Below, piece by piece: positions 45,412 through 61,904 of a DNA stretch of 64,000 nucleotides. The position numbers and the translations under genes are program-made. The notes below the pieces were generated by a model. The model saw only the letters and a list, made by a program, of their open reading frames with translations. It was not told the origin of the DNA and did no database searches. The DNA comes from Candidatus Bathyarchaeota archaeon (lineage in GTDB: Archaea > Thermoproteota > Bathyarchaeia > Bathyarchaeales > Bathyarchaeaceae). Positions within the stretch are counted from its first letter, which is position 1; each line of letters begins with the position of its first letter. Where the stretch lies: contig SOJZ01000005.1 in the NCBI GenBank assembly GCA_004376295.1, forward strand, positions 110,554-174,553, in the 5' to 3' direction.

Positions 45412-45419
45412 GCCTCCGG

Positions 45420-45509: not shown

Positions 45510-45524
45510 TTTTTGAAATTTTTT
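45510..45524 (+). terminator. oligo-T tracts downstream of the tRNA
   Basis: A T5 run at 45510-45514 and a T6 run at 45519-45524. Archaeal Pol termination typically uses oligo-T. Confidence 0.35.
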
Positions 45525-45615
45525 GAAAAGTTTAGCAGACACGCCAAGGCGTACGCCAACCGCCGAGGCGTCACGTTGCTCACAAAACGTCAGATCTTGC
45601 GGAGACTGGGATAGA

Positions 45616-45798
45616 CTAAAAATCTTTTAGAAAATCGTGTAATCGCTCTTCCCTGTCCAGTTTCCCCAACCGGTCCACTACGCCCACCCTGCATTTTCTT
45701 TTTCTCTCTAAAACAGAGGCTATCTCTTCCACCGCTTCTTCAATTCTTTTGCCAGTAGCATTGATTTCACACACTTTGTCAGAACCGCAAGTCCGCAC
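45616..45798 (-). pseudogene. 60-aa ORF, possibly the 3' remnant of a small P-loop kinase gene
   Basis: CEINATGKRIEEAVEEIASVLERKR...VDRLGKL resembles C-terminal ends of Fap7/adenylate-kinase-like proteins as I recall them. There is no P-loop and no room for one, because an AT-rich non-coding stretch follows. Confidence 0.2.
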
Positions 45799-45901
45799 AG
45801 CTTTAATAAATTGTTAATATGGATACATACTTGTACCTATTAACAAAACGGCTTTTACAATATCGTTTTCGAAAGATTTGTTTAAAACTGGAATACTTAA
45901 C

Positions 45902-45918
45902 TCAGATTCTGAATCTGA
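45902..45918. promoter_or_regulatory. 17-bp perfect palindrome upstream of the RHH gene (candidate operator)
   Basis: TCAGATTC-T-GAATCTGA, with a further TTCAGAA half-site at 45941-45947. A TATA-like ATATATAT lies near 45952, and the RHH start is at 46003/46012. Confidence 0.25.
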
Positions 45919-46002
45919 TAGCCAGAATACATACTCTTAATTCAGAAACCATATATATCGTAAAACGTGGTACACAAGAATTGAGATACAAGTGTAAACA
46001 AA

Positions 46003-46197
46003 GTGATTCACATGCCGAAATCGAAGGCGGATCTAAAAAACACGCTCATATCTACCAGGGTTACGCCCGATGTTAAAGGCATGGTGCTGAAAGAGGCTCT
46101 AGCAGATGGCTTAACCATTTCAGAGTGGCTTAGATTTATGATCATCAGGGAGATCGCGAGAAGAAACTCAGCGTCAAAAGCGTCAGGAGCTCCATAA
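46003..46197 (+). CDS. ribbon-helix-helix (CopG/Arc-like) DNA-binding protein
   Basis: TLISTRVTPDVKGMVLKEALADGLTISEWLRFMIIREI fits a beta-strand plus two helices. The stop is 3 nt before the next gene. Confidence 0.6.
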   Translation: MIHMPKSKADLKNTLISTRVTPDVKGMVLKEALADGLTISEWLRFMIIREIARRNSASKASGAP

Positions 46198-46200
46198 GAG

Positions 46201-47106
46201 GTGTTCAGGTTGAAGTCATTGAAGAGTGGCGTTTTTGTGAAACACGGGGAGCTCCGCAAGAGAGTGCTTCAACGATGGTTTGATAAGGTTGGTTTGAAGT
46301 GCTCCGCGTTCAGAGCCCTAAGCAACCCTCTTCCAGGCTTGTTTGTAGAGATGCCTGAGTTTATACAAGACATGATCGACGTGATCCTAAGCAACGAAAA
46401 ACACCTGTTCACTCGTGGCGATCTTGGTAGTGGGAAGACAACGCACATGCTTCTTTTCAAGCGTGAGTTTGGCGAGTTGGAGGACAACCTTGGACATGGG
46501 TTTGTTACCGGATACATTGCGAAAACGGGTCTGCATAGACGGCAGATCGCACGCGAGATTGCGGACGCTCTTGGCGTAAAATACTGCATCTCTTGGAACA
46601 GCAACAGAGTGTTAAATGCTATTGAAGATTTCATTAGGAGAAGCTATCCTAGGTATAGGACGGTGTTGTTCTTTGAGGATGTCGCCGAGAACACCGCCGC
46701 AGCCCTAGGGGAAGTCAAGTATCTAGGCGACTTGGAGAAGGACGAAAGGCTCTGTACGCTTATCATGAGCGGGACGCCAGAATACTGGAGCGCGCTTGAA
46801 GCCGTCATTCCCCTCCTAACAAGTCGCTGTGAAGTGGTCGAGGTTCCTTCCTTCAGCCTTAGGCACTCGAGGAAGTTTGTTTGCAACCGACTATCCTATT
46901 TTAGCAAGAATCCTAAAGCGGATGATCGGGACATCTACCCCTTCACAAAAGAGACAATTAGAGTCCTACATGAGGCCTCGGAGGGAAACCCCCGCAAGTT
47001 GCGCGGCTATTGCCGTAGGTGCGAAAGCGTTGCGGCTGAGAGGTATAGATTGAAGAGGGGTGAGATCGTGGATGAAGAGATCGCAAGGATGGTGACTTCG
47101 GTTTGA
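46201..47106 (+). CDS. ExeA-like AAA+ ATPase
   Basis: Walker A GDLGSGKT, Walker B VLFFEDV, sensor region MSGTPEYW, and a GNPRKL arginine-finger-like motif as in the ExeA/ORC-type AAA_22 group. Confidence 0.75.
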   Translation: MFRLKSLKSGVFVKHGELRKRVLQRWFDKVGLKCSAFRALSNPLPGLFVEMPEFIQDMIDVILSNEKHLFTRGDLGSGKTTHMLLFKREFGELEDNLGHGFVTGYIAKTGLHRRQIAREIADALGVKYCISWNSNRVLNAIEDFIRRSYPRYRTVLFFEDVAENTAAALGEVKYLGDLEKDERLCTLIMSGTPEYWSALEAVIPLLTSRCEVVEVPSFSLRHSRKFVCNRLSYFSKNPKADDRDIYPFTKETIRVLHEASEGNPRKLRGYCRRCESVAAERYRLKRGEIVDEEIARMVTSV

Positions 47107-48044
47107 GTGTCTTGAGCAAATATAAGAAGGTAAGGAAAAAACTTAGGAAAACTCTGAAGAAGCTGGAGAAGCGCGCGCCTAAAGTACCTGTTTCGAGTGT
47201 TTTAAGTAAGTATAAGAAGACAGAGCAAGGTCTGAAGAAGCTTGTGAGCGCGGTCAAAGCGCCGACTCTTGGGGTGTTGAGCAAATATAAGAAAGTGAGG
47301 AAAGAATTTAAAGAGAAGCCCGAAGCGCCGGTTTCGCTTCTTGTGCCGACTGGTATCCCGGGACTCGACAAGGTGATCGGTGGAGGTTTTCCAGAGAAGA
47401 GTGTGATTATATTTGCTGGATCCGTGGGTACCGGGAAGACCATTCTCTCAGCCCGTTACATCTACGAGGGGGCAACGAGGTTCGGTGAGAAGGGGCTTTA
47501 TGTGTGCCTCTCGGAGACGAAGGAAAAGTTCCTGAGGAACATGAGAAGGTTTGGATGGAACTTTGAAAGATTGGAAAAGACGGGGAAGGTCTCGGTCCTC
47601 GGTTTGGCGACGGCCAGAGAGGTCGAGTTACAGAGCAACCTGAACGTCATCATGAGGGAAATCAACGAGCAGAAACCTCAAAGGGTGGTCATAGACCCGC
47701 TCACAGCGATGACCAACGCGATGGAGACGAGGGTAGACGCGCGCTTCCTAACGCATGTTCTCTACAAGTTCCTCGAGAACGCCAACTGCACGGCGATCCT
47801 CACCGCCGAGATCCCGATGGGGTCCGATTTCATAGGTGCAGGCGTGGAGGAGTTCATCGCAGACGGGGTGTTTGTGTTAAAACGAGCTGAAAATGCGGGT
47901 AGGATGGTGAGAAAGCTGGAAATAGTAAAGCTGAGGGGGGCGGAAATCGAAGAGCCCAGACATCTATTCACGCTGTTTGGGGGACCTCAGATAATCTGCA
48001 AGAGAGATGAAGCTATTGAAAAGCTTAACGAATTTCTTGAGTGA
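47103..48044 (+). CDS. single-domain KaiC/RecA-superfamily ATPase with an N-terminal basic triple repeat
   Basis: TGIPGLDKVIGGGFPEKSVIIFAGSVGTGKTILSARYIYEG (KaiC-like Walker A region), VVIDPLTAM (Walker B), and LEIVKLRGAE. The N-terminal 78 aa carry three VLSKYKK repeats. A TTGA start/stop overlap joins it to the upstream gene. Confidence 0.85.
   Translation: MSVLSKYKKVRKKLRKTLKKLEKRAPKVPVSSVLSKYKKTEQGLKKLVSAVKAPTLGVLSKYKKVRKEFKEKPEAPVSLLVPTGIPGLDKVIGGGFPEKSVIIFAGSVGTGKTILSARYIYEGATRFGEKGLYVCLSETKEKFLRNMRRFGWNFERLEKTGKVSVLGLATAREVELQSNLNVIMREINEQKPQRVVIDPLTAMTNAMETRVDARFLTHVLYKFLENANCTAILTAEIPMGSDFIGAGVEEFIADGVFVLKRAENAGRMVRKLEIVKLRGAEIEEPRHLFTLFGGPQIICKRDEAIEKLNEFLE
47106..47336 (+). repeat. 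three tandem ~25-30 codon basic repeats
   Basis: SVLSKYKKVRKKLRKTLKKLEKRAPKVPVS / SVLSKYKKTEQGLKKLVSAVKAPTLG / VLSKYKKVRKEFKEKPEAPVS. The repeats are also visible at the DNA level (agcaaatataagaag). Confidence 0.8.
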
Positions 48045-48098
48045 GGGGGTGTTCAACGTGACCCATAACTTATTTCATTAAGGAGGAGAAGTGGGACA

Positions 48099-48731
48099 TT
48101 GAGTGAAGGAAGAGTAAAATCGATATTAGATCGCCCGCACCTGCTCTTTATAGTTATAGGAGTCACCACCATTTTGTTGATCCCTTTGATGAGCGCGTTT
48201 GAGAGCGTGTTAACATGGCTTGTCATTCGGTCAGGTCTGTATGTTTTCATCAAGGAAGCGATCCTGCCAATACAAGTAAGGATGGTGTCAGTCGCGCTTA
48301 GCGCGCTAGGCTTCGATGTTGATGTTCTCGCAAATTCTGTCGTTGTGCTAGAAAGGGGTGGGCACTCGGCAGGAGCAGGTATATTGTGGAACTGTGTTGG
48401 ATGGCAGACCTTTTTCCTCCTTCTGATAACCCTCGCCTTCGGGATTTCAGGTTCCTATACCATGAAAAGCAAGATGCTCTGCATCGCCCTGAGCTTTGAA
48501 GCCGCGCTATCTATTAGCTTCCTGCGGATTATACTCACTGCTCTAATCAATTTCTATCTGGGACACTGGCAAGCCGTGTTCTTTCACGATTATCTGGGGA
48601 TTGTGTTCGTGCTGGTCTTGGTTTTTGCCTTTTGGATCTTCTGCTTCAAGTTCATACTAGTGTCCAGACCCGAGGCTTCGCAGGGTTTGCAAGACCGAAG
48701 AGAATTGCATAGTTCAGAACGGGTGGGGTAA
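48099..48731 (+). CDS. exosortase/archaeosortase-family-like membrane protein (short form)
   Basis: 210 aa, polytopic. A candidate Cys-Arg-His triad sits in the family-typical contexts and order: GILWNCVGWQTFFLLL (family C-S-G region), SISFLRIILTAL (N-x-x-R-I-like) and VFFHDYLGIVF (H-x-x-x-G). The preceding loop LSALGFDVDVLANSVVVLE resembles the family's G-x-V-x-x-x-G-N-x-I region. Confidence 0.6.
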   Translation: MSEGRVKSILDRPHLLFIVIGVTTILLIPLMSAFESVLTWLVIRSGLYVFIKEAILPIQVRMVSVALSALGFDVDVLANSVVVLERGGHSAGAGILWNCVGWQTFFLLLITLAFGISGSYTMKSKMLCIALSFEAALSISFLRIILTALINFYLGHWQAVFFHDYLGIVFVLVLVFAFWIFCFKFILVSRPEASQGLQDRRELHSSERVG

Positions 48732-48736
48732 ACGGG

Positions 48737-49543
48737 GTGAACAGACACTTATTTGGGGGCGTCGTGGCGGTAGGTCTGGCGTCCATCATCCTCTGTGCGT
48801 TCATACTATCATTCAGCGTCCCATCTTTAGCAGAACGAACAGCGTCTGATACTATCTTTCACTTCACATCCAACGCTTATGAAGGCACTATGCTCTCGGG
48901 CACCTATGCTTCTCCTGGCGGCGATGACTATCATATGGACGACTTGATAAGTGCACCTGAAGGAACAGCGGTCATAAAGAATTTTGCTGTTGGCGATCAT
49001 CTACATTTCTGGACTGACGACTACGATTATAGCGGTTCTTTCGTAGACATACCCGATGCGGATGCTGAGTCATGGGTTGTCAAATTCACTACAGGCGCGA
49101 AAGCTGCGAATTTAGATGTAGTCATTAGAATCACACTTGCCGACGGAAGCCCACATTCACCCGCATTAGAGGTGTCACAGACCATCGCCACTTCGAAAAA
49201 TTCGCTCATCACCGTGACTTTTTCATACCCCACATATTTTTTTACAGGCGACTGGCAGACTGACGAGGATCTTGGAAGAGGCGGGGTGCAAAAGTTGCTG
49301 TATGAAGACACCACTATGCACAGAATCCAAGTTGATTTTGAGGGTTTTACAGGTACAACGACAATAAAATTTGGGCTAGGAAATGAAGGTAGTTTGACAA
49401 CTGGAATCGTTATACCAGAAAACTTGTTGGAATTCTTGTTTCTTGCCCCCTTCATTCCCATAACCGCCAAGGCTTTTGTACGACGGCTGAAAAGAGAGAA
49501 GCTGTTGGCAACCCATGAGGGGGAAAGGAGGGGGAAACAATAA
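48737..49543 (+). CDS. secreted protein with a tripartite C-terminal sorting-signal-like tail (candidate archaeosortase substrate)
   Basis: N-terminal signal/anchor MNRHLFGGVVAVGLASIILCAFILSFSVPSLA. The C-terminus has a short motif IVIPEN, then the hydrophobic LLEFLFLAPFIPITAKAF, then the basic VRRLKREK. The start lies 5 nt after the sortase-like gene. Confidence 0.6.
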   Translation: MNRHLFGGVVAVGLASIILCAFILSFSVPSLAERTASDTIFHFTSNAYEGTMLSGTYASPGGDDYHMDDLISAPEGTAVIKNFAVGDHLHFWTDDYDYSGSFVDIPDADAESWVVKFTTGAKAANLDVVIRITLADGSPHSPALEVSQTIATSKNSLITVTFSYPTYFFTGDWQTDEDLGRGGVQKLLYEDTTMHRIQVDFEGFTGTTTIKFGLGNEGSLTTGIVIPENLLEFLFLAPFIPITAKAFVRRLKREKLLATHEGERRGKQ

Positions 49544-49560
49544 TCCTAGACCTGCCCTAC

Positions 49561-52290
49561 GTGTTCGCGGCAATAAGCCTAGTGGCTGGTTTCCTCTTCG
49601 CCCTCTACGCCACAAAATACTACCTCTCCGTGTTCCTAGCCCTCCGAAACCACAACAACATGGTCAGCAACCACAACCACCTCTACAACAACCACAACAA
49701 CCACAACAACAACACAGCCTTCCCCAACCATCTCAACCACCTCAACAACGGAGTTAACAACCACCGCAACAACTGGAAGAACAACAACGGACCCTTCGTC
49801 TCGATCCACCTGCCCATATACAACGAGTCCAATGTGGTCGAGCGGCTGATGAAGGCATGCACCTCCTTCGACTATAGCAACTACGAAGTGATCGTCATTG
49901 ACGACTCCACGGACGAAACGACCGACATCCTAAGGAGCTGGAGCGACCACCCGAGGGTCAAGCTAATCCACAGAACAACAAGGCAGGGATACAAGCCCGG
50001 AGCCCTCTCGGTGGCTCTACAACACATGAACCCAAGGGCGCAATACGTACTCATCTTCGACGCCGACTTCATTCCACCACCCTACCTCTTGAACTATTTC
50101 GTACCATACTTCGCACAGCCGGTGGTAGCAAGAGAGGACATCATATCCGCGATCCTAGACCTGGACAGTCGATTCGTCGACAGAGAAATAAGCGTCGGAA
50201 AATACTTGGAAAAGAAAGAGAAACTCGTGAAACTCGTTGTCGAGGCGCCCGAGAGACCGGTCGACGAGAGAAATCTGGTGACAACCATCGTTCACCAAGA
50301 CCAACTGTTCACGCGGGAAGAGATAGACACCGAACAATACCTGACAAGGAGAGAGACACTCGTCACTAGGCTGCAGAAAAGAAGGCGAAAGGAGCCTTGG
50401 ACAAGAGAGTTTATTGTCTCCCAAATCCTCGGTCTCGACAAATCTTACGCCGAAAACAAGATTTCCTACGAAAAATATCAAAGGAAGAGACAAGAGCTAA
50501 CCGAACGCCTCAAGGAGATGGAAAGGGGATTACCGACCGAGATTAGCATAATGTCCTCTATCTTTGAACTCGACAGGCTCTTCACGGAAGACAAAGTCGG
50601 TGGCGAGAAATACCTAGAGAAGAGAGTCAGACTGGTAGAAAGGCTTGAAGTCGTCAGGACTCCAAGAGAAGGCGGGGAAGCTAGGGCAGAGGAGAAGACG
50701 CTGATCGAACTAGGTGCGAAACCAACAGAGAAGGATCGAAAGACCTTGTCGGAGATTCTCGAGCTGGACAGCCTTTTCGCCACAGACAAGATCGTCATTA
50801 AGGAATACTTAGAGAGGCGACGAAGACTTGTCGGAGAACTCGAAGTCATCAGGAAACGCGATGAAAAAAGAGGGCCCCCAACCGAAAAGGCTCTACGGGT
50901 CGATCTAGGGCTAGATGAGAAACGGGCGCAGATGGAAAGGAGCACATCGTATCCCATCTTCGAGTTTGATAGGCTGTTTGCGGAGGATAAAGTCAGCGGC
51001 GAGGAATACTTAGAGAAGAGGGAGAAACTGGTAGAGACAGTCTTTCAAAAGACGCGCTTAAGATACGATCTGAAAAGAATAATCCAGCTCTATAGAAACC
51101 ACAACACCGCTGCTGTTCAGGGCTACCAGCATCACTTCTTGAACAGCAACGAAAACTGGCTGACTAGAGGGATCAGAGCTGAGTACAGCGCTAGCTACAT
51201 GGTTGAGAGGTCAGCCCAAGAAGTTTTAGGTCTAATGAAGATGATCGCCGGAAGCGTGTTCATGATAAGGGCGGATCTACTACTTGAATACGGGTGGTCG
51301 ACCAGCATCACAGAGGACTGGGAGCTGACCCTCAGGCTCTACCGCGACGGCTATAAGGTTCTATACACGCCACTTAACGCGGTTCCGGCAGAATGCCCAG
51401 CCACCTTCAAGAGGCTCGTGCAGCAACGGATGCGCTGGGCCGAAGGACACACCTACAACGTCCGAAAATACTTCCGCGACATAATGAAATCCTCTGAGAT
51501 GAAACTCAGGGAGAAACTAGAGTTCCTTTACTACTCGCCCTATTACCTCCAGTCCTTCATGTTTATACTAGGCACCATCTGCTGGTTCATATCAGAGTCG
51601 CTTCATAGGCATCTATGGCACCCATACATGGGATGGGCCCTCCTGCTGTATAATTTCCTAGCCATCCCGGCCATGGGGATCACGGGGCTCTTCTTGGAGG
51701 GAACGCCAAAGAAGGACTTCACCGGGGTGTTGTCCACCATAGTGATGACATACCTTCTGGCCCCGTTTCAGGCCTACGCCTCCATTAAGGGTTTACTTGA
51801 GAAGAAAGAGGGTCCCTGGATTAGAACATTCAAGACCGGAAAAGTCACAGAACGCATGATGCTAACGGAACTCAGAATCAGGAAACGGCTGTTAGCCCTA
51901 TTCCCAAGGAAATGGTTGACATCCCTGAACGGAGCCCGCATGCGAATCAGGCGTACCATCTTCGGACCGCCCGAACGCGCCGAAATAAGACTGGCCGACG
52001 AAAGGAGCATCCTAACAGCCATCCTTGAGCTAGACAGATCGTTCGCCGAAGATCAGATAACAACCGATGAGTACCTGTCAGAGAGACAGAACTTCGTGGC
52101 AGACCTGATGGTAGCGAAAAAGCGTAAAGAGAAGAGGCTCAAGGCTGAAAAACCTGCAGAGGAAGATCGAACAAAATCCGCCGTCTTCGAACTAGACAAC
52201 TTCTTCACCGAGGGTCAGATCGGTGTCGAGGAATACTTGAGGAAAAGGACGGAACTTGTGGAAAGGCTGCAAGGAGAAGGTGAAGCGTGA
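49561..52290 (+). CDS. processive GT2 beta-glycan synthase (cellulose/chitin/mannan-synthase-like) with a ~330-aa repeat insertion and C-terminal repeats
   Basis: D (VIDDSTD), DxD (IFDADF), TED (SITEDWE) and QxxRW (QQRMRW) are all present. There is an N-terminal TM and about four C-terminal TMs. The insertion between DxD and TED spans aa ~186-515 (nt 50116-51105). Confidence 0.85.
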   Translation: MFAAISLVAGFLFALYATKYYLSVFLALRNHNNMVSNHNHLYNNHNNHNNNTAFPNHLNHLNNGVNNHRNNWKNNNGPFVSIHLPIYNESNVVERLMKACTSFDYSNYEVIVIDDSTDETTDILRSWSDHPRVKLIHRTTRQGYKPGALSVALQHMNPRAQYVLIFDADFIPPPYLLNYFVPYFAQPVVAREDIISAILDLDSRFVDREISVGKYLEKKEKLVKLVVEAPERPVDERNLVTTIVHQDQLFTREEIDTEQYLTRRETLVTRLQKRRRKEPWTREFIVSQILGLDKSYAENKISYEKYQRKRQELTERLKEMERGLPTEISIMSSIFELDRLFTEDKVGGEKYLEKRVRLVERLEVVRTPREGGEARAEEKTLIELGAKPTEKDRKTLSEILELDSLFATDKIVIKEYLERRRRLVGELEVIRKRDEKRGPPTEKALRVDLGLDEKRAQMERSTSYPIFEFDRLFAEDKVSGEEYLEKREKLVETVFQKTRLRYDLKRIIQLYRNHNTAAVQGYQHHFLNSNENWLTRGIRAEYSASYMVERSAQEVLGLMKMIAGSVFMIRADLLLEYGWSTSITEDWELTLRLYRDGYKVLYTPLNAVPAECPATFKRLVQQRMRWAEGHTYNVRKYFRDIMKSSEMKLREKLEFLYYSPYYLQSFMFILGTICWFISESLHRHLWHPYMGWALLLYNFLAIPAMGITGLFLEGTPKKDFTGVLSTIVMTYLLAPFQAYASIKGLLEKKEGPWIRTFKTGKVTERMMLTELRIRKRLLALFPRKWLTSLNGARMRIRRTIFGPPERAEIRLADERSILTAILELDRSFAEDQITTDEYLSERQNFVADLMVAKKRKEKRLKAEKPAEEDRTKSAVFELDNFFTEGQIGVEEYLRKRTELVERLQGEGEA
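49645..49791 (+). repeat. Asn/His-rich low-complexity tract encoded by imperfect AAC/CAC repeats
   Basis: NHNNMVSNHNHLYNNHNNHNNNTAFPNHLNHLNNGVNNHRNNWKNNN. The DNA is dominated by aaccacaac units. Confidence 0.85.
50140..51042 (+). repeat. six SHOCT-like ~30-aa protein repeats inside the GT2 catalytic domain
   Basis: ILDLDSRFVDREISVGKYLEKKEKLVKL; IVHQDQLFTREEIDTEQYLTRRETLVTRL; ILGLDKSYAENKISYEKYQRKRQELTERL; IFELDRLFTEDKVGGEKYLEKRVRLVERL; ILELDSLFATDKIVIKEYLERRRRLVGEL; IFEFDRLFAEDKVSGEEYLEKREKLVETV. Confidence 0.8.
52003..52269 (+). repeat. two further SHOCT-like repeats at the GT2 C-terminus
   Basis: ILELDRSFAEDQITTDEYLSERQNFVADL and VFELDNFFTEGQIGVEEYLRKRTELVERL. Confidence 0.8.
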
Positions 52291-53024
52291 AGGGCAATTT
52301 CAAGGTTAACGTCGCTGTTGTTCTTCTAACCTATATGGAGGCTGAAAACGTAGAGACACTCATCCCAGCCATTAAAGGCGTCGTTTCAAGGGTGACCGAA
52401 AACTTTGACGTGATCGTGGTGGACGACGACTCTCCAGACGGGACGGCGAGAGCAGCCGAGGCTCTTGGATCTCACGTCCTAGTTCGAAGAAATGAAAGGG
52501 GATTGGGATCCGCCATAAGAGCCGGAATTAGGGAGGCGCTAAGCCGAGGAGCCGATATCATAATTACCATGGATGCCGATTGGCAGCACAACCCGCAGCA
52601 CATACCTCGACTCATAAACGCTTGCCTGGAAGGGGCGGACATAGCCTTAGGGAGCAGGAGGATCCCCGGCGGTCAGCTAGAGATGGGCCTCTTTAGAGGG
52701 CTCATATCCTTAGGGGCGAAAAAACTGTCGAACATCGCGTTGAGATCGGGAGTTAAGGACCCAACTTCCGGCTTCAGAGCATACAATAGAAGGGCCGCTG
52801 AAGAGGTTTTGGCGTTAAGGACCAACGGATACGTGTTCCAGGTCGATTCCCTACGCCTCGCGAGAAAGCGTGGGCTGAGAATCGTTGAGGCACCAATATC
52901 GTTTAACAGCCGAAGACATGGGGTCTCCAAGCTCGGACTCAGCGAGGTGATGGAGTACAGCGGCCTCCTCTTCACGCTACTGACGCGGAGGTTACGCACT
53001 GCAGTAGACTCGTCTGGAGGTTAA
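52287..53024 (+). CDS. GT2 polyprenyl/dolichyl-phosphate sugar synthase (DPM1/Ppm1-like)
   Basis: VAVVLLTYMEAEN, VIVVDDDSPDGT and ITMDADWQH. Length is 245 aa with no TM. A GTGA overlap joins it to the upstream gene. Confidence 0.8.
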   Translation: MKGNFKVNVAVVLLTYMEAENVETLIPAIKGVVSRVTENFDVIVVDDDSPDGTARAAEALGSHVLVRRNERGLGSAIRAGIREALSRGADIIITMDADWQHNPQHIPRLINACLEGADIALGSRRIPGGQLEMGLFRGLISLGAKKLSNIALRSGVKDPTSGFRAYNRRAAEEVLALRTNGYVFQVDSLRLARKRGLRIVEAPISFNSRRHGVSKLGLSEVMEYSGLLFTLLTRRLRTAVDSSGG

Positions 53025-53027
53025 GAA

Positions 53028-54518: not shown

Positions 54519-57166
54519 GTGAAAAGATGGAAATACAACGATTAGGAAGCTTAATGGTAATAGCCGTTTACATTGCGATCCTAGTGTATTTCATCGGTTT
54601 TTTACTAAATGCCTGGACGTATTTTGCTTATCCTCCAGGAAACGACACAATTCCCCATCTATATAAAACAAAATTCATTACTCAATATTTGCCTCAAATT
54701 CGATGGAATCATCACTGGGCCTCTGGTATGCCTCTATTCAGGTGGTACCCCATCCTATTCTTCTTATTGCAAGCTTCAGCTACGGTGATAACCGCCCTTC
54801 CCGTTGAACTTGTACTGGTCATAACTCTTTCAATAAGTTACTGGTTAATCGGCCTAGGAATCTATTTGTTTACTTCTGAAATCGTGAATGATCACAGCAT
54901 CTCCATAATTGCGCCGACAGTCTTAATTTCAACTCCGATTCTCTGGAACTTATATGTGGAAGGAGGATTGTGTACCAGAATTCCGGCTGCGGGCTTCTTT
55001 GCACTTTCGCTTGCAGCAACAATCAGATATGTTAATCGACCTTCCAGAATGAGGCTGCTTTCTAGTATATTATGTATTTCTACTTCAATGTTACTTCATC
55101 CAGCCTACGGAGTGCCTGCGTTAATATCGTGCACTCTACTGACTCTAGTTATGGCGAAAGACTGGAGGCGGAAGATAACACTATCCTTAAAGATAATGAT
55201 TCCTACTCTTTTCCTAATCTGTTGGTTCTACCTTCCATTCATTCAACCTCTACCTCCTCACCGCTTATCTGAGCCATTCTCTCTTTCTGTTACAATAGCG
55301 CATATCTTCATGTTACCAACGAGGGGCGCGGATGTAACATTTAATCCCATATTCATCCCTTTGACTCTCGCACTCGTCATGATAAGTCTCTTTTACGACA
55401 GGAAAACTCTAACAGAAAACTCACTTTTAAAATGGGTTTTAGCATTTTTGTTTCTTTTTCCATTTCTAGCTCAGATCTTTGATGATTCTATTATTATGAT
55501 AACTCTTGCCTTCTACTTACTACCGTTTGACTGTTTATTGCTCAAAAGGCTGTATGATATCTTGGCACGTCACAGAAGGTTTCTTCCAAACATTATAACA
55601 GTTTGTCTAATATCTCTGATATTGATTGCTCAAGTCTGGGTAACAGGAGTAGATGTAATTGAAAAGATCAAAAACCCTGTGACAAAAGTTCCTGATGCGT
55701 TGAGTGAGATCTCAGATAGATTAACAATTCCGAAGGAAAATTTTATGTATCGCGTTGCAGTTGCTGGAAGCTACAGTGATTTGGGCGGGTGGTTTAACTA
55801 TAAATATGATGTCCCACAAACAAGGGACTATTATGGTCAAGGAATCCTAAATCCGCAGTGGAATGGTCTTTTCAGTATAATTTACTACACAACGGGTAAT
55901 TACAATGAAACTAATTTCTTCCTTGACTATTGGGGAGTTAAATGGATTCTTGCTAGAAGTGATATGAATATCCAAGGTACGTCTATACCCCATTACCAGA
56001 AATTCCTAGCTCGACAACAATATTACCAACTAACTGGACAGGCGCGGGCGATCTATGATCCAGATGAAGTCATCTACGAGTTTACATACAGAAATGCCAC
56101 TCCAATATTTTACGTTTCTAACGTCCCCACATTACTTATTCTCGGAGATGAAATAGGTTATAATGACGTATTTCTCGCATTTGCTTATTCAGATTATGAC
56201 AGCCGCTGTATCATCCCAATTAAGGGTTATGAATACATTGACGACTACACGTTAAGTCAGCTAAGTCAATTCGATGCGATAATCCTTAGAGGATACAAAT
56301 ATCATGATCGAGCTGAGGCATGGAGCCTACTAGACAACTACGTGAAGAATGGAGGTGGCTTAATAATCGAGACTGGTTACTCTCCTGATGGGAACGCGTC
56401 CTTTATACCCCCTCCATGCCCGGTTGAAATGACGAGAAAAACTGACTTTGGCAAGGAGTGGCATTTCACCTACGTTGACAGCCCAGTAACGGATGGAATC
56501 AATTTCACATCATTTTCTCCCGCGGTCTATGGCGACCACGCTTGGGGCGTTTCAGCCTCATACAATGAAAGCGTTCGCCTATGGGCTAGGACTATACTCT
56601 GGAACAAAGGACATCCACTCGTCGTTATTGGCGATTACGGAAAAGGCCGCGTCGTCTGGTCCGGTCTGAACCTGCCCTACCACATTATCAACTACAAAAA
56701 CTATTGGGAGTCGCTGTTCCTATCCAAGATAATTGACTGGGCTGCACAGGCACCTAAGAAGAGGACTACAACCGTCGACTACACGGTGAACCGCCCTAAC
56801 CCTGAAAAGATCATAGTGACCGTCAGCAATGAAGCGAATGGCATTCTGTTTAAGGAGTGCCACTTCAAGAATTGGTACGCATATTTAATTGACCATGAAG
56901 GAAAAAGACAAAACCTACCTATCTATAAGGCTGGTCCATACTTCATGTATGTGCGCGTGCCAAGTGATATTAAATTACCCATTAAAGTCTTTTTTGAGTA
57001 CGGTTGGGAATGGGAAGAGATATCCGGAGGTATAATTAGCATGATAACCTTCGTAATTTTAGTGATGTACGCTACTGGGCTTCCAGTGGATAAACCAGCT
57101 AAATATTTGGTTAAAAGACTGAAGAAGTCGGCTCAGAAGGTAGGTGGATGGTGGTATGAAGAGTAA
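54515..57166 (+). CDS. large polytopic membrane protein with a C-terminal extracytoplasmic domain (GT-C-like / PTPS_related COG5617-like)
   Basis: 883 aa. The N-terminus PPGNDTIPHLYKTKFITQYLPQIRWNHHWASGMPLFRWYP resembles the PTPS_related membrane family as I recall it. About 13 TM are followed by a ~450-aa soluble part and a terminal TM. Confidence 0.55.
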   Translation: MSEKMEIQRLGSLMVIAVYIAILVYFIGFLLNAWTYFAYPPGNDTIPHLYKTKFITQYLPQIRWNHHWASGMPLFRWYPILFFLLQASATVITALPVELVLVITLSISYWLIGLGIYLFTSEIVNDHSISIIAPTVLISTPILWNLYVEGGLCTRIPAAGFFALSLAATIRYVNRPSRMRLLSSILCISTSMLLHPAYGVPALISCTLLTLVMAKDWRRKITLSLKIMIPTLFLICWFYLPFIQPLPPHRLSEPFSLSVTIAHIFMLPTRGADVTFNPIFIPLTLALVMISLFYDRKTLTENSLLKWVLAFLFLFPFLAQIFDDSIIMITLAFYLLPFDCLLLKRLYDILARHRRFLPNIITVCLISLILIAQVWVTGVDVIEKIKNPVTKVPDALSEISDRLTIPKENFMYRVAVAGSYSDLGGWFNYKYDVPQTRDYYGQGILNPQWNGLFSIIYYTTGNYNETNFFLDYWGVKWILARSDMNIQGTSIPHYQKFLARQQYYQLTGQARAIYDPDEVIYEFTYRNATPIFYVSNVPTLLILGDEIGYNDVFLAFAYSDYDSRCIIPIKGYEYIDDYTLSQLSQFDAIILRGYKYHDRAEAWSLLDNYVKNGGGLIIETGYSPDGNASFIPPPCPVEMTRKTDFGKEWHFTYVDSPVTDGINFTSFSPAVYGDHAWGVSASYNESVRLWARTILWNKGHPLVVIGDYGKGRVVWSGLNLPYHIINYKNYWESLFLSKIIDWAAQAPKKRTTTVDYTVNRPNPEKIIVTVSNEANGILFKECHFKNWYAYLIDHEGKRQNLPIYKAGPYFMYVRVPSDIKLPIKVFFEYGWEWEEISGGIISMITFVILVMYATGLPVDKPAKYLVKRLKKSAQKVGGWWYEE

Positions 57167-57911
57167 AGAGTCGGATATTATCATGTCAAGTGCCGGTGCT
57201 ATGGAAGGATGCAAGATGGAGTTGAAGCAGATTTACAACAAATGGTACTTTGAACGTAAATACAGGTATTCAAAGAAGAAGAACGCCATTCAACATCACT
57301 ATTTTAGCATGCTTGTATGGGCGAACAGGCACTCACCTTGGAATCTATTAAATGGATGTGGGAAAAAGGCATTAGACATTGGCTGTGCTTATGGCTTCAT
57401 CACTGATCTACTTAGTAGGTTGGGATATGAAGCCATAGGAATAGATGTCTCAAAGTATGCTGTCATGAGAGGGGGAGAATTTGGCATGAAGGATTTACTT
57501 GTATCTGACGTTTCACATCCGCCGTTCAAAGCCATGTCCTTCGATCTGATAACATGCTTTGAAGTACTTGAGCATTTACCAGATCCTACTTCCGCATTAA
57601 CTGGCATTTACGAGCTTCTTGATTCACAAGGAATTTTCCTCGCCATAACACCTAGCGTAGGCAGTGTGGCTACTGCCATCGGCGTATTATCCCGAGAAAA
57701 CCCCTCCATCCACCCATCCGTTAAGCCTCCAAACGAGTGGATTGAAACCTTATCAAACCTCCAATTTTCGAGGATTAAGCTTGAGCCTTTCCTATTGCTA
57801 CCGATGCCTCCAACGTTACTTAACAGGTACTTCATGGTTAAACGTACTTCACGTTTTGCAAGCCATGTTAGAATTCTCGCCATAAAGCCTTCAGCGGAGG
57901 AGAACAGGTAA
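57144..57911 (+). CDS. class I SAM-dependent methyltransferase
   Basis: Motif I ALDIGCAYGFITDLLSRLGYEAIGIDVS, and motif II FDLITCFEVLEHL. The start is uncertain, with in-frame ATGs at 57156 and later. Confidence 0.8.
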   Translation: MDGGMKSKESDIIMSSAGAMEGCKMELKQIYNKWYFERKYRYSKKKNAIQHHYFSMLVWANRHSPWNLLNGCGKKALDIGCAYGFITDLLSRLGYEAIGIDVSKYAVMRGGEFGMKDLLVSDVSHPPFKAMSFDLITCFEVLEHLPDPTSALTGIYELLDSQGIFLAITPSVGSVATAIGVLSRENPSIHPSVKPPNEWIETLSNLQFSRIKLEPFLLLPMPPTLLNRYFMVKRTSRFASHVRILAIKPSAEENR

Positions 57912-59068
57912 TGCAAAGTGGGGTTCTGTTGGACGCCCTTCTAAGCAATGTTAGGAATTTACCGTTTAACCTCGAATTCGCTGTAACGAATAAATGCAAT
58001 CTGAGGTGCGTGCAATGCAATGTTTGGCGATATTATAACGAGGACCCTGAAAAATCTCGAGAAGAGTTAACGGTGGAAGAGATCGAAAATATATTTTCAT
58101 CATATAACGGCTTTAGCATGATCGGCATCACCGGTGGTGAGCCGTTTTTAAGAGAAGACTTGCCCGAAATAGTCAGCGTCATAAGCCGAACCCAGAGAAA
58201 GTTAAGGATGCTGTTTATAACAACTAATGGGCAACTTCCTGAAACGACTGAAAGAAAGCTCCGAGAAATTTTAGAGAATAGAGATGCCAATGGACGCAGA
58301 TTTAGATTAGTGCAGCTAGTTAGTTTAGATGGTCCTAGAAACCTGCATAATTACATCCGCAGCAATGAGAAGGCATATGATAGAGTCATCAACACCATTA
58401 AATTGCTGTCCGAGTTAAGGTCTGTTTATGATATTTTCGATCTAGGAACAGTGACTGTTTGCTCTCCATTTAACATCGATAAATTTGATGAAGTGATTAG
58501 CGAGATTGCAAAATTAAAGAATGAATATGATCTGGAGCCTAGCTTCTGCGTGTGGTTCAAGGGCCGATTATACAAGAACATAAAAAGCCAAGAAGACGTT
58601 GAAAAGTTTAGGAGAAAACTAATTGATTTAATCCCGGAAATTAAGGGAGTTGTTAAGAAAAGGAAGTCCTTACTCTCGACGGGCAGATGCGTTTTTTATG
58701 ACCTGCTTAATTCTTGGCTGGAAAACCCAACAAAACAGGTTGTCCCATGCGGCGCCGCTAAGGTTAGATACGTCCTTGATACCTATGGAAACGTCTATCC
58801 ATGCACCATCTTCAACGCCGCCATAGGAAATCTGCGTCATTACAACTACAGCCTCATAGAGCTCTTTTCTAGCAACAGAAGAAGAAAGGTTAGGCTTCTC
58901 GTTGAAAGAGAAGGTTGTCCGATATGCTGCAATACATGCGAAACGATCCCGGCTATGATGGCGTATCCCCTTCACACGCTCATCAAATGGATAAACTCGA
59001 GCGCTTTGGGATTTAATAGGCCTCACGATTCACGGAAAGAATGTAAGACGCAAAGGTGTTTCCTATGA
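57911..59068 (+). CDS. radical SAM enzyme with a C-terminal SPASM/twitch-like Cys cluster
   Basis: CNLRCVQCNVW (CxxxCxxC), GGEPFL, and C-terminal CGAAKVRYVLDTYGNVYPC ... CPICCNTCE. A TAATG overlap joins it to the methyltransferase. Confidence 0.85.
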   Translation: MQSGVLLDALLSNVRNLPFNLEFAVTNKCNLRCVQCNVWRYYNEDPEKSREELTVEEIENIFSSYNGFSMIGITGGEPFLREDLPEIVSVISRTQRKLRMLFITTNGQLPETTERKLREILENRDANGRRFRLVQLVSLDGPRNLHNYIRSNEKAYDRVINTIKLLSELRSVYDIFDLGTVTVCSPFNIDKFDEVISEIAKLKNEYDLEPSFCVWFKGRLYKNIKSQEDVEKFRRKLIDLIPEIKGVVKKRKSLLSTGRCVFYDLLNSWLENPTKQVVPCGAAKVRYVLDTYGNVYPCTIFNAAIGNLRHYNYSLIELFSSNRRRKVRLLVEREGCPICCNTCETIPAMMAYPLHTLIKWINSSALGFNRPHDSRKECKTQRCFL

Positions 59069-60273
59069 AGTGTTGTGTGATTTCTCCGTATCCTCCTGAG
59101 GAGTGCGGAATTGCACTCTATACTTCTAAGCTAGTAGCCGAGCTGATCAAACACATTAACATCGCTATCCTAGCAAATAATAAAAATGGGCTAAGTAACA
59201 TGTCTACTGAAAGCGGTGTAAAAATTGTAAGATGCTGGCGCAGAAACAACCCGCTCTACCCTTTCCAGATAATGAAAGGCGTCTTGCACGAAAAACCTGA
59301 CGTGATCCATGTTCAGCACGAATACCTAGCCTACGGCGTTCGTAAATACGCCGTGTTATTCCCAGCATTGCTATGTCTTCTACGATTAGCCGGAAAACCC
59401 ATAATCGTGACTATGCATAGCGTATTACCAAAGAAAGAACTCACACGACGCTTTTTCGCGCTACACGGTGTGGGGTATAGGCTCGCCTTCGTCAAGAGAG
59501 CCTTTGCAATTTTAGTCACAAAATTGATTGGATGGCTTTCACATGCAACAATAGTCCACAACTGTTTCATGAAGGCCACTCTAATATCAGACTATTATTT
59601 TAAAAAGGAAAAGATTAACGTAATTCATCACGGTGTTGACGTACCTAATCCTCAGATTGAGGAAGACAAGGCCAAAATATCGCTAGGGTTAGCTGGTAAA
59701 AAAGTTGTATTATTCTTTGGCTTTATCATACCCGGGAAAGGTTTGGAATGTTTGATTAAAACTTTCTCGATGTTTTTAGAAGAAGCCCCTAACGCAACGC
59801 TGATGATCGCCGGAGAATACCATCCACGCCTCTCTAAAGAGAACCCCTCATACATGGGTACAATTGAAAGACTAATAAATGAGAAGAAGTTAGAGAAAAA
59901 AGTAGTTTTCAAGAACAGTTTTGTCCCTAACGAAGAACTCCATGCGTATATAGCGGCAGCAGATGTGATAGTTCTACCATACGTTGATGAAAGCATAGCT
60001 GGAGTGAGCGGCGCGCTGGCTACTTGTGCGCTTTTCAATAAGCCTGTTATTGCAACAGACATCCCGAGATTTGCTGGCGAAATAAAGAACGGAGTGAACG
60101 GCATCCTAGTTAAACCTAAGGACGAAGAGCAGCTTAGAAACGCGATGACGGCGCTAATGAGGGATGAAGATTTAAGAAAGAAACTCGGTAAAAATCTGCG
60201 CACATCGTTTCTAAAAAGGACATGGGATAAGATTGCATTGACGACTCTACAAATTTATGGACTCGACACTTAG
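59056..60273 (+). CDS. GT4-family glycosyltransferase
   Basis: ISPYPPEECGIALYTSKL, and the C-terminal E-x7-E region ALATCALFNKPVIATDIPRFAGEIKNGVNGILV. It overlaps the upstream gene by 13 nt. Confidence 0.85.
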   Translation: MFPMKCCVISPYPPEECGIALYTSKLVAELIKHINIAILANNKNGLSNMSTESGVKIVRCWRRNNPLYPFQIMKGVLHEKPDVIHVQHEYLAYGVRKYAVLFPALLCLLRLAGKPIIVTMHSVLPKKELTRRFFALHGVGYRLAFVKRAFAILVTKLIGWLSHATIVHNCFMKATLISDYYFKKEKINVIHHGVDVPNPQIEEDKAKISLGLAGKKVVLFFGFIIPGKGLECLIKTFSMFLEEAPNATLMIAGEYHPRLSKENPSYMGTIERLINEKKLEKKVVFKNSFVPNEELHAYIAAADVIVLPYVDESIAGVSGALATCALFNKPVIATDIPRFAGEIKNGVNGILVKPKDEEQLRNAMTALMRDEDLRKKLGKNLRTSFLKRTWDKIALTTLQIYGLDT

Positions 60274-60356
60274 GAGAATGCGTGTCCAGGGAATAGTATT
60301 TTGCCATCCGAAAAGAAGGGTTATATGAAAAATCATTCTTATGATTTACGCGCCAC

Positions 60357-61904
60357 TTGAAACCGAGGGTTAAGTATGAGCAGATGGTGGGAGAAGTGAG
60401 AAGGATCTTGTTGCTTGCAGTCGTTCTTTTCGTGTTGATACTGTCGTTCTTCTCTTATCAGCATTTTTTCGTTAAGCCGCCAAGTCCCTATCCACCCGGC
60501 ATGAGTGACGTAGACAAGGCAGCTATGAAAGCCGATGGCATTCAAGCCAACGAACTGAGAGAGGTGACGGACGCCCTAAAGAGGAATGACAGCGGAAAGG
60601 TGATCTACGGCGACCGCTTCATGCGTTGGACCGTTCTGGCTTACACGTTGTGGAGGGTAGATCAGGGCGACTTGACGATCATAAAGGCCATGGAAGACCT
60701 GATGATCTCTTATTATAACCATGCGTGGTACCCCTTTGTGAAGAATAGGCCACCGATGCCGTTCGAAGGTCTCATCCAATATTTTCGTGGCGATGGCACT
60801 TGGAAAGATTACTGGTGCGACTACAAGCCTGTCTACTCGGCTGCTTTCGTGCTCGAGTACTACTTGTTATCGTGCTTCGATCGGGAATGGGGTATCCAGA
60901 ACTATCCCATTCTAAAGAACGTCACGGACTCCCTGCTTAAGATGTGGCTACCTGGGCGCCATCAACCTTGCGCCTACGTAGACAGCGACGGCACAACGTT
61001 CCAGGTTATGAACATCACCTGCAGCGTTGACAGCGCTTTCGTTTACGCCGCCTTAATCTCCTCGTCTCAAATATCTAAAGTATTGATGAACGATACCCAT
61101 AGCTACGAGAACTATACCAGATATGCGAAGGACCTGATCACGCACTTCTACAACCAGACTTGGGATTGGTTTCCAACCAGCATTTTCGGTGCGAATCCGG
61201 AAGAAGAATACGGGACCGCGCTGCAAGTCGGTACGACCCTCCCGTTCATTGACGCGGACGATAAGATCGATCTATGCGAACGATATCTGGTCAACAACCT
61301 TCGCGTAGGGACGCCATGGCTACTGAAGTGGAAGAAAAGCGACACGTCTCCCAGCAGCCGCTCTGTCACGGCAGCCGCAGGGCTTGCGCTCAAGTATCCA
61401 CGAATCTCTTATGACATTTTGAACGCGTATGCCGATGCGGCGTTATCGAACGATCCCTGGTTCCTAACCGAAACCGATGAGTACGAAGGCGGAGATCCTA
61501 TTTGGGTTAGCGGTAAGTACCTGCAAACCTATGTGTTTCTGAAAAATCGAATGTTGACTGGCAGAATCCCCTTCTCACCAAAGCTGATGGGAGGGAGCCT
61601 CAGGTTTGAAACATCATTTCCGTCAGACCTACCCGGACTGCACCTAGTCAATGGCACCTTCCCGACGCTTCTAGGAATCATGGAAGTGAAAGCAAGCGTG
61701 ACAGAAAATGCCCTTAAATATGTTATCGCTGGAGCGCCACATCAGAACGTCACAGTCAAATTCCACGTTTCATTCGAACCAGATGTCTCATGCGACGCGA
61801 GCATGTGGGGTTACACTGACGATCGAAATATAAACGTCACAGTCGTCTGGTTCATACCGGACGGCATGGTTGAAATAGAGATCGAAAAACCATCCACACT
61901 CTAG
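60357..61904 (+). CDS. secreted/membrane-anchored helical-repeat protein, unknown function
   Basis: N-terminal anchor RRILLLAVVLFVLILSFFSY. Several N-x-S/T sequons and recurrent aromatic-rich helical segments are present. A more likely start is the ATG at 60384. Confidence 0.55.
   Translation: MKPRVKYEQMVGEVRRILLLAVVLFVLILSFFSYQHFFVKPPSPYPPGMSDVDKAAMKADGIQANELREVTDALKRNDSGKVIYGDRFMRWTVLAYTLWRVDQGDLTIIKAMEDLMISYYNHAWYPFVKNRPPMPFEGLIQYFRGDGTWKDYWCDYKPVYSAAFVLEYYLLSCFDREWGIQNYPILKNVTDSLLKMWLPGRHQPCAYVDSDGTTFQVMNITCSVDSAFVYAALISSSQISKVLMNDTHSYENYTRYAKDLITHFYNQTWDWFPTSIFGANPEEEYGTALQVGTTLPFIDADDKIDLCERYLVNNLRVGTPWLLKWKKSDTSPSSRSVTAAAGLALKYPRISYDILNAYADAALSNDPWFLTETDEYEGGDPIWVSGKYLQTYVFLKNRMLTGRIPFSPKLMGGSLRFETSFPSDLPGLHLVNGTFPTLLGIMEVKASVTENALKYVIAGAPHQNVTVKFHVSFEPDVSCDASMWGYTDDRNINVTVVWFIPDGMVEIEIEKPSTL

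Follow-up and report, generated by a model that had tools for sequence, protein, structure and literature searches.

How is the sorting of a protein to the cell surface connected with the synthesis of a polysaccharide, and is such a connection in archaea a version of that known from bacteria? This question is raised by a 64-kb stretch of DNA from a Candidatus Bathyarchaeota genome (contig SOJZ01000005.1; the whole stretch is called the window hereafter), in which a block of closely spaced genes at positions 46003-61904 encodes a small protein resembling exosortases and archaeosortases, a secreted protein with a C-terminus like a sorting signal, a membrane-bound family 2 glycosyltransferase (GT2) synthase, two ATPases and several further enzymes. 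In an earlier note, made from the letters alone, the block had been described as an archaeal version of the bacterial exosortase/PEP-CTERM exopolysaccharide (EPS) loci. Our results replace this picture by that of one family extending across both domains, whose target is mostly the C-terminal module of the synthase itself. Because most relatives, archaeal as well as bacterial, have target and synthase joined in one protein, sorting and polysaccharide synthesis appear to be directly tied in this family.

A small sortase of the exosortase/archaeosortase superfamily

The earlier note had made its exosortase/archaeosortase call dependent on a family hit for the product of 48099-48731, and such a hit is found: the protein, hereafter the mini-sortase, passes the NCBIfam signature TIGR04178 (26.5 bits against a cut-off of 23, E 5.8e-6, residues 95-182), and an identical protein from a Candidatus Bathyarchaeota metagenome-assembled genome (MAG) carries the NCBI label 'exosortase/archaeosortase family protein'. 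A word-indexed search with it yielded 7 clusters only, and a HMMER profile search of 1.84 billion representatives yielded 270 matches at E <= 1e-3 and 118 at E <= 1e-10, with lengths mostly of 185-260 amino acids (aa). In an alignment of 49 diverse members, which outside the clade of the window are 18-31% identical to its protein, the residues C99, G101, W102, R143, H163 and W179 are invariant in all 49. The Cys/Arg/His set, which corresponds to the putative triad of the superfamily defined by Haft (10.1101/2023.06.07.544157; PMC1569441), is also invariant among 7 close relatives. By its sequence the product is thus assigned to the exosortase/archaeosortase superfamily, as a putative intramembrane cysteine protease or transpeptidase.

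Within the superfamily, the mini-sortases stand apart from the named subfamilies. All 49 aligned members pass TIGR04178 (best E 3.7e-11), and their matches to named subfamilies are weak, the best being to ArtC with E 2.1e-8. None of five members scanned in detail reaches the cut-off of any named Art/Xrt subfamily, the maxima being 35 against 100 bits for ArtC, 33 against 102.75 for XrtG, 33 against 170 for XrtX and 34 against 250 for thaumarchaeosortase. Likewise the mini-sortase of the window reaches no named subfamily cut-off, and its only other match is CrtC with 18 bits against 225. EpsH/XrtA proteins are recognised by eight transmembrane (TM) helices and by TIGR02602, whereas here about five long helices are seen and TIGR02602 matches weakly in 2 of the 49 members.

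The AlphaFold2 model of the mini-sortase is confident, with a predicted local distance difference test score (pLDDT) of 88.8 and a predicted template modelling score (pTM) of 0.80. It places the long helices at residues 13-45, 47-69, 102-115, 122-154 and 156-186, with a three-stranded sheet (73-94) immediately ahead of Cys99. From the distribution of charged residues we infer that both termini are inside and that the outer helix ends hold Cys99 and His163. A sequence search of the PDB gave nothing (E >= 0.38), and a fold search of the PDB with the model gave at best E 0.29 and a TM-score of 0.24, with no exosortase structure among the matches.

Relatives of the mini-sortase are encoded in at least 289 species genomes of the GTDB species genome scan, belonging to Bathyarchaeia, Chloroflexota, Patescibacteria and Dormibacterota. 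The best 80 loci (Bathyarchaeia 14, Chloroflexota 26, Patescibacteria 26, Dormibacterota 4, MAGs labelled Gammaproteobacteria 5, unclassified bacteria 5) were taken for comparison, and their open reading frames (ORFs) were searched with the proteins of the window. In a neighbour-joining tree of the sortase domains, which was built without support values, the clades follow taxonomy. A few loci disagree with their labels. Five from MAGs labelled Gammaproteobacteria (L027, L055, L061, L074, L079) resemble Patescibacteria in both their sortases and their signals, and the tree places them among the latter; moreover one locus labelled Patescibacteria (L039) is Bathyarchaeia-like, and one labelled Bathyarchaeia (L051) is Chloroflexota-like. 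These mismatches are probably due to mis-binning, or else to recent transfer.

The predicted substrate and its C-terminal signal

The next gene encodes the predicted substrate of the mini-sortase, which the earlier note had regarded as a secreted protein with a C-terminus like a sorting signal; the signal is confirmed in all its three parts. The N-terminus is a signal-anchor ending SLA/ER and probably cleavable, and the middle is a beta-rich, hypervariable ectodomain. The C-terminal tail, GIVIPENLLEFLFLAPFIPITAKAFVRRLKREKLLATHEGERRGKQ, consists of the motif VIPENLL, the TM helix LAPFIPITAKAFV containing LAPFIP, and the basic cluster RRLKREK, followed by a conserved HEGERRGK tail. In the whole window, this is the sole ORF ending with Pro-Glu, a hydrophobic stretch and a basic cluster.

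The same signal is seen in the relatives. In an alignment of 40 modules, E228 and P241 are nearly invariant, and 71 unique tails give the consensus S-x-L-x-T-P-x-[IT]-[VIT]-V-P-E-x-[LV]-L-x-L-L-x-L-A-P-x-[LI]-P, followed by a run of Arg/Lys. A proline is found at +11 in 58% and at +14 in 76% of these tails, and the 100% frequency of the P and the E holds by construction, as both were fixed in the search pattern. We considered whether the tail of the window is a known named CTERM domain, and this was ruled out as no model, including Firmicu-CTERM, matches it. The PEP-CTERM model TIGR02595, with a cut-off of 16 bits, is not matched by the window tail either, and one of eight tails tested, from a Patescibacteria locus, reaches that cut-off with 16.2 bits.

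Jackhmmer ties the free substrate (residues ~11-255) to the C-terminal module of the synthases and of the sortase fusions described below. The substrate is thus the free-standing form of the module which in most relatives ends the neighbouring GT2 synthase. Past the first TM helix of the module, small-x-small motifs such as VEAV/AD and VVAA/PD recur, and because these resemble signal-peptidase sites, the ectodomain may be freed at both ends. According to Haft, a dedicated system is one where an enzyme and its single target are regularly encoded in consecutive or nearby genes (10.1101/2023.06.07.544157). The mini-sortase is dedicated one-to-one in just this sense: the two genes are adjacent throughout the window's clade, a signal-bearing ORF adjoins the sortase in 57 of the 80 loci, and in some proteins the two are fused.

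The synthase and its linkage with the sortase across phyla

The gene after the substrate had been read as a processive GT2, and the reading stands: the product has the motifs DDS114, DAD167, TED584 and QRMRW622 (the D, DxD, TED and QxxRW of such enzymes) as well as C-terminal TM helices, and its closest PDB match is BcsA. The top NCBIfam match is PgaC_IcaA with 103 bits against a cut-off of 422, and CelA gives 63 against 699; because these equivalog cut-offs are missed, we do not assign the polymer. The synthesis route would be synthase-dependent (BcsA/PgaC-like), unlike the Wzx/Wzy-type route of the XrtA/PEP-CTERM EPS loci.

The Pfam GT2 matches fall in two halves (residues 81-186 and 504-702), as ~300 aa of SHOCT-like repeats, each of ~45 aa, are inserted into the GT-A domain and divide it. 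The repeat unit is ELDRLFxEDKIxxEEYLEKRxxLVERL, and two more copies stand at the C-terminus of the synthase; the repeat-coding DNA lies at ~50130-51050 and 52020-52290. On these repeats Pfam gives a match to GvpG only, which is sub-threshold (28.4 bits against 30.6). The insertion is not seen in the synthases of other lineages, including that of the Bathyarchaeia locus L015.

A homologue of the synthase (340-520 bits) is located within 1.5 kb of the sortase in at least 43 of the 62 evaluable loci, and in most synthase-bearing loci the synthase ORF itself ends in the VPE motif, a TM helix and the basic cluster. The neighbourhood, on whose conservation the earlier note had staked its reading, is thus kept, with GT2 synteny in close relatives and across phyla. 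Moreover, the parts are repeatedly found in one polypeptide: synthase, module and sortase are joined in P0077 and P0087, sortase and module in P0015, P0031, P0034, P0051, P0057 and P0061 (428-474 aa), and the module tail and the sortase in P0025. In all fusions, the order of TM helices and basic linkers is consistent with a single topology in which the VPE motif lies on the outer side of the membrane.

Other arrangements were also observed. In six Bathyarchaeia loci (L006, L010, L016, L034, L042, L057), the synthase is followed by one or two sortase-module fusions and then by a plain mini-sortase, so that as many as three paralogous sortase domains stand in succession. In Anaerolineae there are giant ORFs (L011 679-4683, L012 3-6134, L021 1-3990) with two to three tandem units of ectodomain, VPE, TM helix and RRRR, which look like polyproteins with several sortase sites. 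One protein of 384 aa (P0060) is a fusion of a mini-sortase with a class I methyltransferase, which matches the methyltransferase gene frequent beside bacterial sortases.

Exchange of enzyme and substrate between strains

The comparison of the window with the closely related locus L001 revealed a swappable cassette. By blastn, the DNA of the two is 98.66% identical over 43001-48124 and 98.46% over 49514-54255, and between 48124 and 49514 no alignment is obtained; the sortases are 47% and the substrates 34% identical as proteins. The second allele, that of L001, appears again in L086, and the allele of the window in L083, L085 and L002. L001 comes from JGI sample 3300022542 and L083 from JGI sample 3300022538. 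Further substrate alleles (P0162-P0165) have C-terminal signals 52-89% identical and ectodomains 17-35% identical; across alleles the signal is kept while the ectodomains are only 15-35% identical. Between near-identical strains, enzyme and target are swapped jointly, and divergence is fastest in the exposed part. The swap of the cassette together with the hypervariable ectodomain fits an exposed surface component under diversifying selection.

Variation is also found around the cassette. The downstream decorating genes differ between the window and L002, a relative with 86% identity. In L002, a D5_N/DUF5906 primase-like gene (1-1194) stands upstream, where the window has the gene of a fructose-1,6-bisphosphate (FBP) aldolase/phosphatase, and a mobile element may have been inserted near the cluster there.

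Two ATPases and a small putative regulator confined to one clade

Upstream of the sortase are three genes for a small ribbon-helix-helix (RHH) type protein, an ExeA-like AAA+ ATPase and a KaiC-like ATPase. The RHH call is based on sub-threshold matches only, namely 21.7 bits to the NikA-like PF21983 (cut-off 27) and 18 bits to MobA NF041264, and the small gene is conserved in L001, L002, L085 and L086. The earlier note had linked the AAA+ protein with TIGR03015 (pepcterm_ATPase) of the exosortase loci. This model is in fact its best NCBIfam match (E 3.3e-13, profile positions 42-256 of 269), but with 49.7 bits against 324.5 the protein is a relative rather than a member; a PDB sequence search with it gave no match. 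The KaiC-like protein has a single domain and is not the double-domain circadian KaiC (NF006799 131.6 bits against a cut-off of 408). Ahead of its ATPase domain stand three basic VLSKYKK(V/T) repeats, encoded by direct DNA repeats of 37 nt at 47109-47145, 47199-47235 and 47274-47310, with 65-86% identity to the first copy.

Homologues of these three genes adjoin the sortase only in L001, L002, L083, L085 and L086, all of them belonging to the window's own clade, and because of this we take the trio as a lineage-specific addition. The quartet of AAA+, KaiC-like, sortase and substrate genes, for which the earlier note proposed a check of synteny with a GT2 synthase, is accordingly found in this clade but not beyond it. 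Homologues of the AAA_22 protein with 37-42% identity were found in one Thorarchaeota MAG and 14 metagenome contigs, with no KaiC, sortase or synthase near them. These distant homologues in unrelated contexts rule out the AAA+/KaiC pair as a general component of the system. Confined to the same lineage are also the substrate as a separate gene, the HEGERRGK tail and the repeat insertion of the synthase. Because the insertion and the tail occur only where the ATPases occur, we suspect that the ATPases may act on the SHOCT-like repeats and the HEGERRGK tail, which is speculative.

Layout of the block and its accompanying genes

The ORF list gives 13 co-directional ORFs on the + strand of the block, tightly packed, instead of the 15 genes counted earlier; their coordinates are collected in Table 1. 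Start codons in this list are the first possible ones, and given these starts, all the junctions quoted in the earlier note are found. There are gaps of 3-5 nt at 46198-46200, 48732-48736 and 53025-53027, overlaps of 4 nt at 47103-47106, 52287-52290 and 54515-54518, a single base common to both genes at 57911, and a 13-nt overlap at 59056-59068. Gene calls on the L083 contig (99.99% identical, offset +41605) place four starts differently, at 46012, 54554, 57156 and 59065. With the start of the 883-aa gene at 54554, a 35-nt gap replaces the overlap at 54515-54518, and with that at 59065 the overlap before the GT4 gene is 4 nt rather than 13 nt. Under either choice of starts the tight packing holds, and 13 genes on the same strand with nearly no spacing are unlikely to arise by chance. 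The order RHH, AAA_22, KaiC-like, sortase, substrate and GT2 is repeated in L001, L002, L083, L085 and L086. Scans with bacterial promoter and terminator models, which are unsuited to an archaeon, gave counts equal to those in shuffled sequence and lend the operon no support.

Table 1. Features of the block and of its upstream boundary, in positions of the window
Positions	Strand	Feature	Basis or remark
45355-45467	+	tRNA gene with intron	Rfam RF00005, 38.6 bits, gathering score 29; 113 nt
46003-46197	+	small putative ribbon-helix-helix protein	likely ATG 46012 (61 aa), from L083
46201-47106	+	AAA+ ATPase (AAA_22, ExeA-like)	PF13401 33 bits
47103-48044	+	single-domain KaiC/RecA-like ATPase	PF06745 200.7 bits, residues 81-290
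48099-48731	+	mini exosortase/archaeosortase-family protein, 210 aa	TIGR04178; putative catalytic Cys99, Arg143, His163
48125-49513		swappable cassette: sortase from ~codon 9 through substrate minus last 30 nt	blastn
48737-49543	+	predicted sortase substrate, 268 aa	C-terminal motif, TM helix and basic cluster
49561-52290	+	processive membrane GT2 synthase, BcsA/PgaC-like	PF00535, PF13641, PF13632
52287-53024	+	GT2 polyprenyl-phosphate sugar synthase-like (DPM/PpgS/AglJ-like)	PF00535 88 bits
53028-54518	+	GT-C-fold (PMT_2) membrane glycosyltransferase-like	PF13231 33.1 bits
54515-57166	+	large membrane protein, PTPS_related	PF10131 31.3 bits; likely start 54554
57144-57911	+	class I S-adenosylmethionine (SAM)-dependent methyltransferase	PF08241 64 bits; likely start 57156
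57911-59068	+	radical SAM/SPASM enzyme	PF04055 60 bits, PF13186 22.9 bits
59056-60273	+	GT4 glycosyltransferase	PF00534 81 bits, PF13439 50 bits; likely start 59065
60357-61904	+	515-aa protein, N-terminal TM helix	no family; homologues in L002, L004

Most of the gene functions proposed earlier are supported by Pfam and NCBIfam, apart from the sub-threshold RHH protein and the product of 60357-61904, which matches nothing in Pfam, NCBIfam or the PDB. Among the genes downstream of the synthase, the DPM-like GT2 gives NCBIfam matches to PpgS, ArnC-like and AglJ, all below their cut-offs. In several loci of Chloroflexota and Dormibacterota, PMT_2 homologues stand downstream of the sortase, PTPS_related homologues recur in many bacterial loci of the sortase family, and methyltransferase homologues adjoin the sortase in many loci. 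The PTPS-related protein had no match in a PDB sequence search, and the radical SAM/SPASM gene is missing from the L002 version of the cluster. The 515-aa protein has homologues in L002 (748 bits) and in the Bathyarchaeia locus L004, there directly past the sortase (667 bits), and is linked to the sortase system by this position.

The tRNA gene noticed earlier before the block is real according to Rfam, while ARAGORN detected no tRNA there; because the Rfam match is 113 nt long, the gene is taken to contain an intron. Its 3' end is ~540 nt ahead of the first gene, and it marks the upstream boundary, outside the operon. The block sits between the FBP aldolase/phosphatase gene and ftsZ, and the remainder of the window is ordinary archaeal chromosome with genes for ABCE1, histidine utilisation and glycogen metabolism. 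There is a step of guanine-plus-cytosine (GC) content within the block, from 0.48-0.50 over 46001-54000 to 0.41-0.44 over 54001-60000, with the surrounding DNA mostly at 0.41-0.47; the gene cluster may be a mosaic. Far from the block, positions 10913-15226 encode a protein of 1437 aa with NosD/beta-helix and PQQ-like beta-propeller repeats and a calcineurin-like phosphoesterase, which lacks a VPE-type tail.

Proposed function and its alternatives

Taken together, we consider it fairly probable that the block is an operon for a surface polysaccharide made by the synthase-dependent route, and that its dedicated mini-sortase removes the C-terminal helix of one ectodomain protein and re-anchors this protein on a lipid or a glycan. 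The substrate would insert with its N-terminus inside, and its beta-rich ectodomain would come to lie outside, beside the synthase. At the outer face of the membrane, the mini-sortase would recognise the VPE motif and the proline-containing helix, and Cys99 would attack near the motif, whereby the C-terminal helix would be released and an acyl-enzyme intermediate formed. An amine nucleophile, either the headgroup of a membrane lipid or the glycan made by the synthase, would then resolve this intermediate, leaving the ectodomain fixed to the cell surface, within the polymer or upon it. Decoration of the polymer or of the ectodomain would be the task of the DPM-like GT2, both GT-C-like proteins, the methyltransferase, the radical SAM enzyme and the GT4, and the RHH, AAA+ and KaiC-like proteins would be a cytoplasmic add-on of the window's lineage. 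The resolution of an acyl-enzyme intermediate by an amine nucleophile is known from sortase A. For the archaeosortase ArtA, Cys173 is the active-site residue and archaetidylethanolamine has been proposed as the nucleophile (PMC7157517).

Several points weigh against this proposal. The TIGR04178 score of the mini-sortase lies 3.5 bits over the cut-off, and the fold comparison has no solved exosortase as a reference. The tail of the window matches no curated CTERM model, even with E up to 10, and the structure model of the substrate, with a pLDDT of 49, is a poor guide to the fold of the ectodomain or to a sugar-binding role. The one-to-one relation of enzyme and target covers the 64-kb window, and further substrates elsewhere in the genome are possible. 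Moreover, in four loci (L009, L028, L062, L038) both a synthase and a signal-bearing ORF are lacking within 10 kb of the sortase. It is from sequence that we infer the topology, the cleavage site, the chemistry of the transfer, the polymer and what the ATPases do; cleavage, anchoring and polymer are to be read with this in mind, and the proposed role of the ATPases is speculative, as it comes from co-occurrence in a single narrow clade.

As to what the mini-sortase does with its target, it could act by processing only, removing the C-terminal helix hydrolytically, with no transfer, and thereby maturing or activating the synthase complex or cutting polyproteins. It would suit such a role that the target is mostly part of the synthase or of the giant ORFs with two to three VPE-TM-RRRR units (L011, L012, L021), which resembles polyprotein maturation, and whether archaeosortases are one-step transpeptidases is still open (Haft, 10.1101/2023.06.07.544157). 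However, the Cys/Arg/His set matches that of transpeptidating sortases, the substrates of ArtA become lipid-modified (PMC7157517), and a free substrate with the probably cleavable signal SLA/ER would be released if it were left unattached; we therefore judge processing only to be rather unlikely. A more daring idea is that the mini-sortase joins protein to glycan, with the C-terminus of the ectodomain, whether borne by the synthase or, in the window's lineage, free-standing, being transferred onto the nascent polysaccharide, so that a hypervariable protein would covalently cap or anchor the polymer, and we would give this but a slim chance. If true, it would mean that the swappable cassette gives a strain-specific surface identity, for example for virus avoidance or kin recognition, and it would offer a chemical reason for the link of exosortases to exopolysaccharide loci in general.

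Other explanations concern the block as a whole. It might be a cluster for glycoprotein biogenesis of the ArtA/S-layer type, where the glycosyltransferases glycosylate the substrate via lipid-linked sugars and the GT2 makes no free polymer; the DPM/AglJ-like GT2 and the two GT-C-like membrane proteins are indeed such as occur in glycosylation dependent on lipid-phosphate sugars, and the decorating genes vary between strains. We hold this for very unlikely, since the GT2 has the full set of processive motifs and C-terminal TM helices, an STT3/AglB is absent from the block, the substrate is a small protein of 268 aa which most lineages have joined to the synthase, and the sortase passes none of the ArtA-ArtF models. 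It is hardly to be believed, finally, that the block is a mobile island associated with the tRNA, in which the RHH, AAA+ and KaiC-like proteins serve maintenance or transfer: an integrase is absent, the tRNA 3' end has no att-like copy at the far end of the block, L001 and L083 have the block at the same position beside the FBP aldolase/phosphatase gene, the flanks are ordinary chromosome (FtsZ, ABCE1, histidine- and glycogen-metabolism genes), and the trio and the sortase operon are coupled in translation. This stands in spite of the place of the block after a tRNA, its GC content (0.48-0.50 at 46-54 kb against 0.41-0.47 around), the weak NikA/MobA-like matches of the RHH protein and the D5_N/DUF5906 primase gene upstream in L002. 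A synthase-dependent operon with a re-anchoring mini-sortase thus remains the reading that we prefer.

Comparison with known systems

In the full-text literature we found no description of the mini-sortase family or of a sorting signal on a GT2 synthase, though an earlier mention is possible. The family carries the superfamily into Bathyarchaeia, Patescibacteria, Chloroflexota and Dormibacterota, its signal is not represented among the curated models, and it points to a feature of the cell envelope common to major uncultured lineages. The questions to which partner the targets of exosortases are attached, and why exosortases are placed in EPS loci, are herein reduced to a minimal system of an enzyme of ~200 aa, one target and one synthase, often in a single polypeptide, in which a direct test is feasible. 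Moreover, the swappable cassette of enzyme and substrate suggests a strain-level diversification of the surface in sediment archaea.

The exosortases were predicted already in 2006 to link protein sorting with exopolysaccharide production (PMC1569441). XrtA has 8 TM helices and 1 to 65 targets per genome with a median of 8; it has been described only from outer-membrane-bearing organisms, and Archaea were reported to lack it (PMC1569441). With the XrtA/EpsH system, the block shares the superfamily, the Cys/Arg/His set, a signal of Pro-Glu followed by a TM helix and Arg/Lys, the linkage with EPS, and an ExeA-like AAA+ ATPase with TIGR03015 as best model. In contrast, the enzyme here has ~200 aa, its single target is adjacent or fused, the synthesis route is predicted to be synthase-dependent, the proteins of the window miss the cut-offs of TIGR02595 and TIGR03015, and one target is found in the window.

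As for archaea, experiments on ArtA of Haloferax volcanii, which acts on the PGF-CTERM S-layer glycoprotein, support an active-site Cys, removal of the helix and lipid modification (PMC7157517; 10.1101/2023.06.07.544157). ArtA is an archaeal member of the same superfamily and the source of the mechanism proposed here, but it is larger, has several PGF-CTERM targets not encoded nearby, and is unlinked to a GT2 synthase; the protein of the window has no match to the ArtA model, and the members of its family match ArtC, ArtE and ArtF weakly. On the side of the polymer, the GT2 of the window has the D, DxD, TED and QxxRW motifs and the C-terminal TM helices of BcsA and PgaC (IcaA), whereas its scores are far under the equivalog cut-offs, a partner of the BcsB/PgaB type is lacking, the predicted sortase-processed ectodomain module is added, and in the window's lineage the GT-A domain has the repeat insertion.

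Among annotated systems, that of XrtG in Firmicutes comes closest; in it, a small exosortase-family protein stands beside a single dedicated target (Firmicu-CTERM) and two glycosyltransferases (PMC12854382). The XrtG system is one defined by NCBIfam models, whose cut-offs are far from being reached here: the sortase model, set at 102.75 bits, gives 33 bits at best, and the GT2 model, set at 364 bits, gives 29. The XrtG neighbourhood also includes a PTPS-related membrane protein. Here the target does not match Firmicu-CTERM and is mostly fused to the synthase, the taxa are others, and in the window's lineage the pair of ATPases is added. What the two have in common is a small exosortase, a single adjacent target and a GT2, and in addition 15 of the 49 family members match the XrtG model weakly and the synthase of the window matches TIGR03111, the model of the XrtG-associated GT2, weakly.

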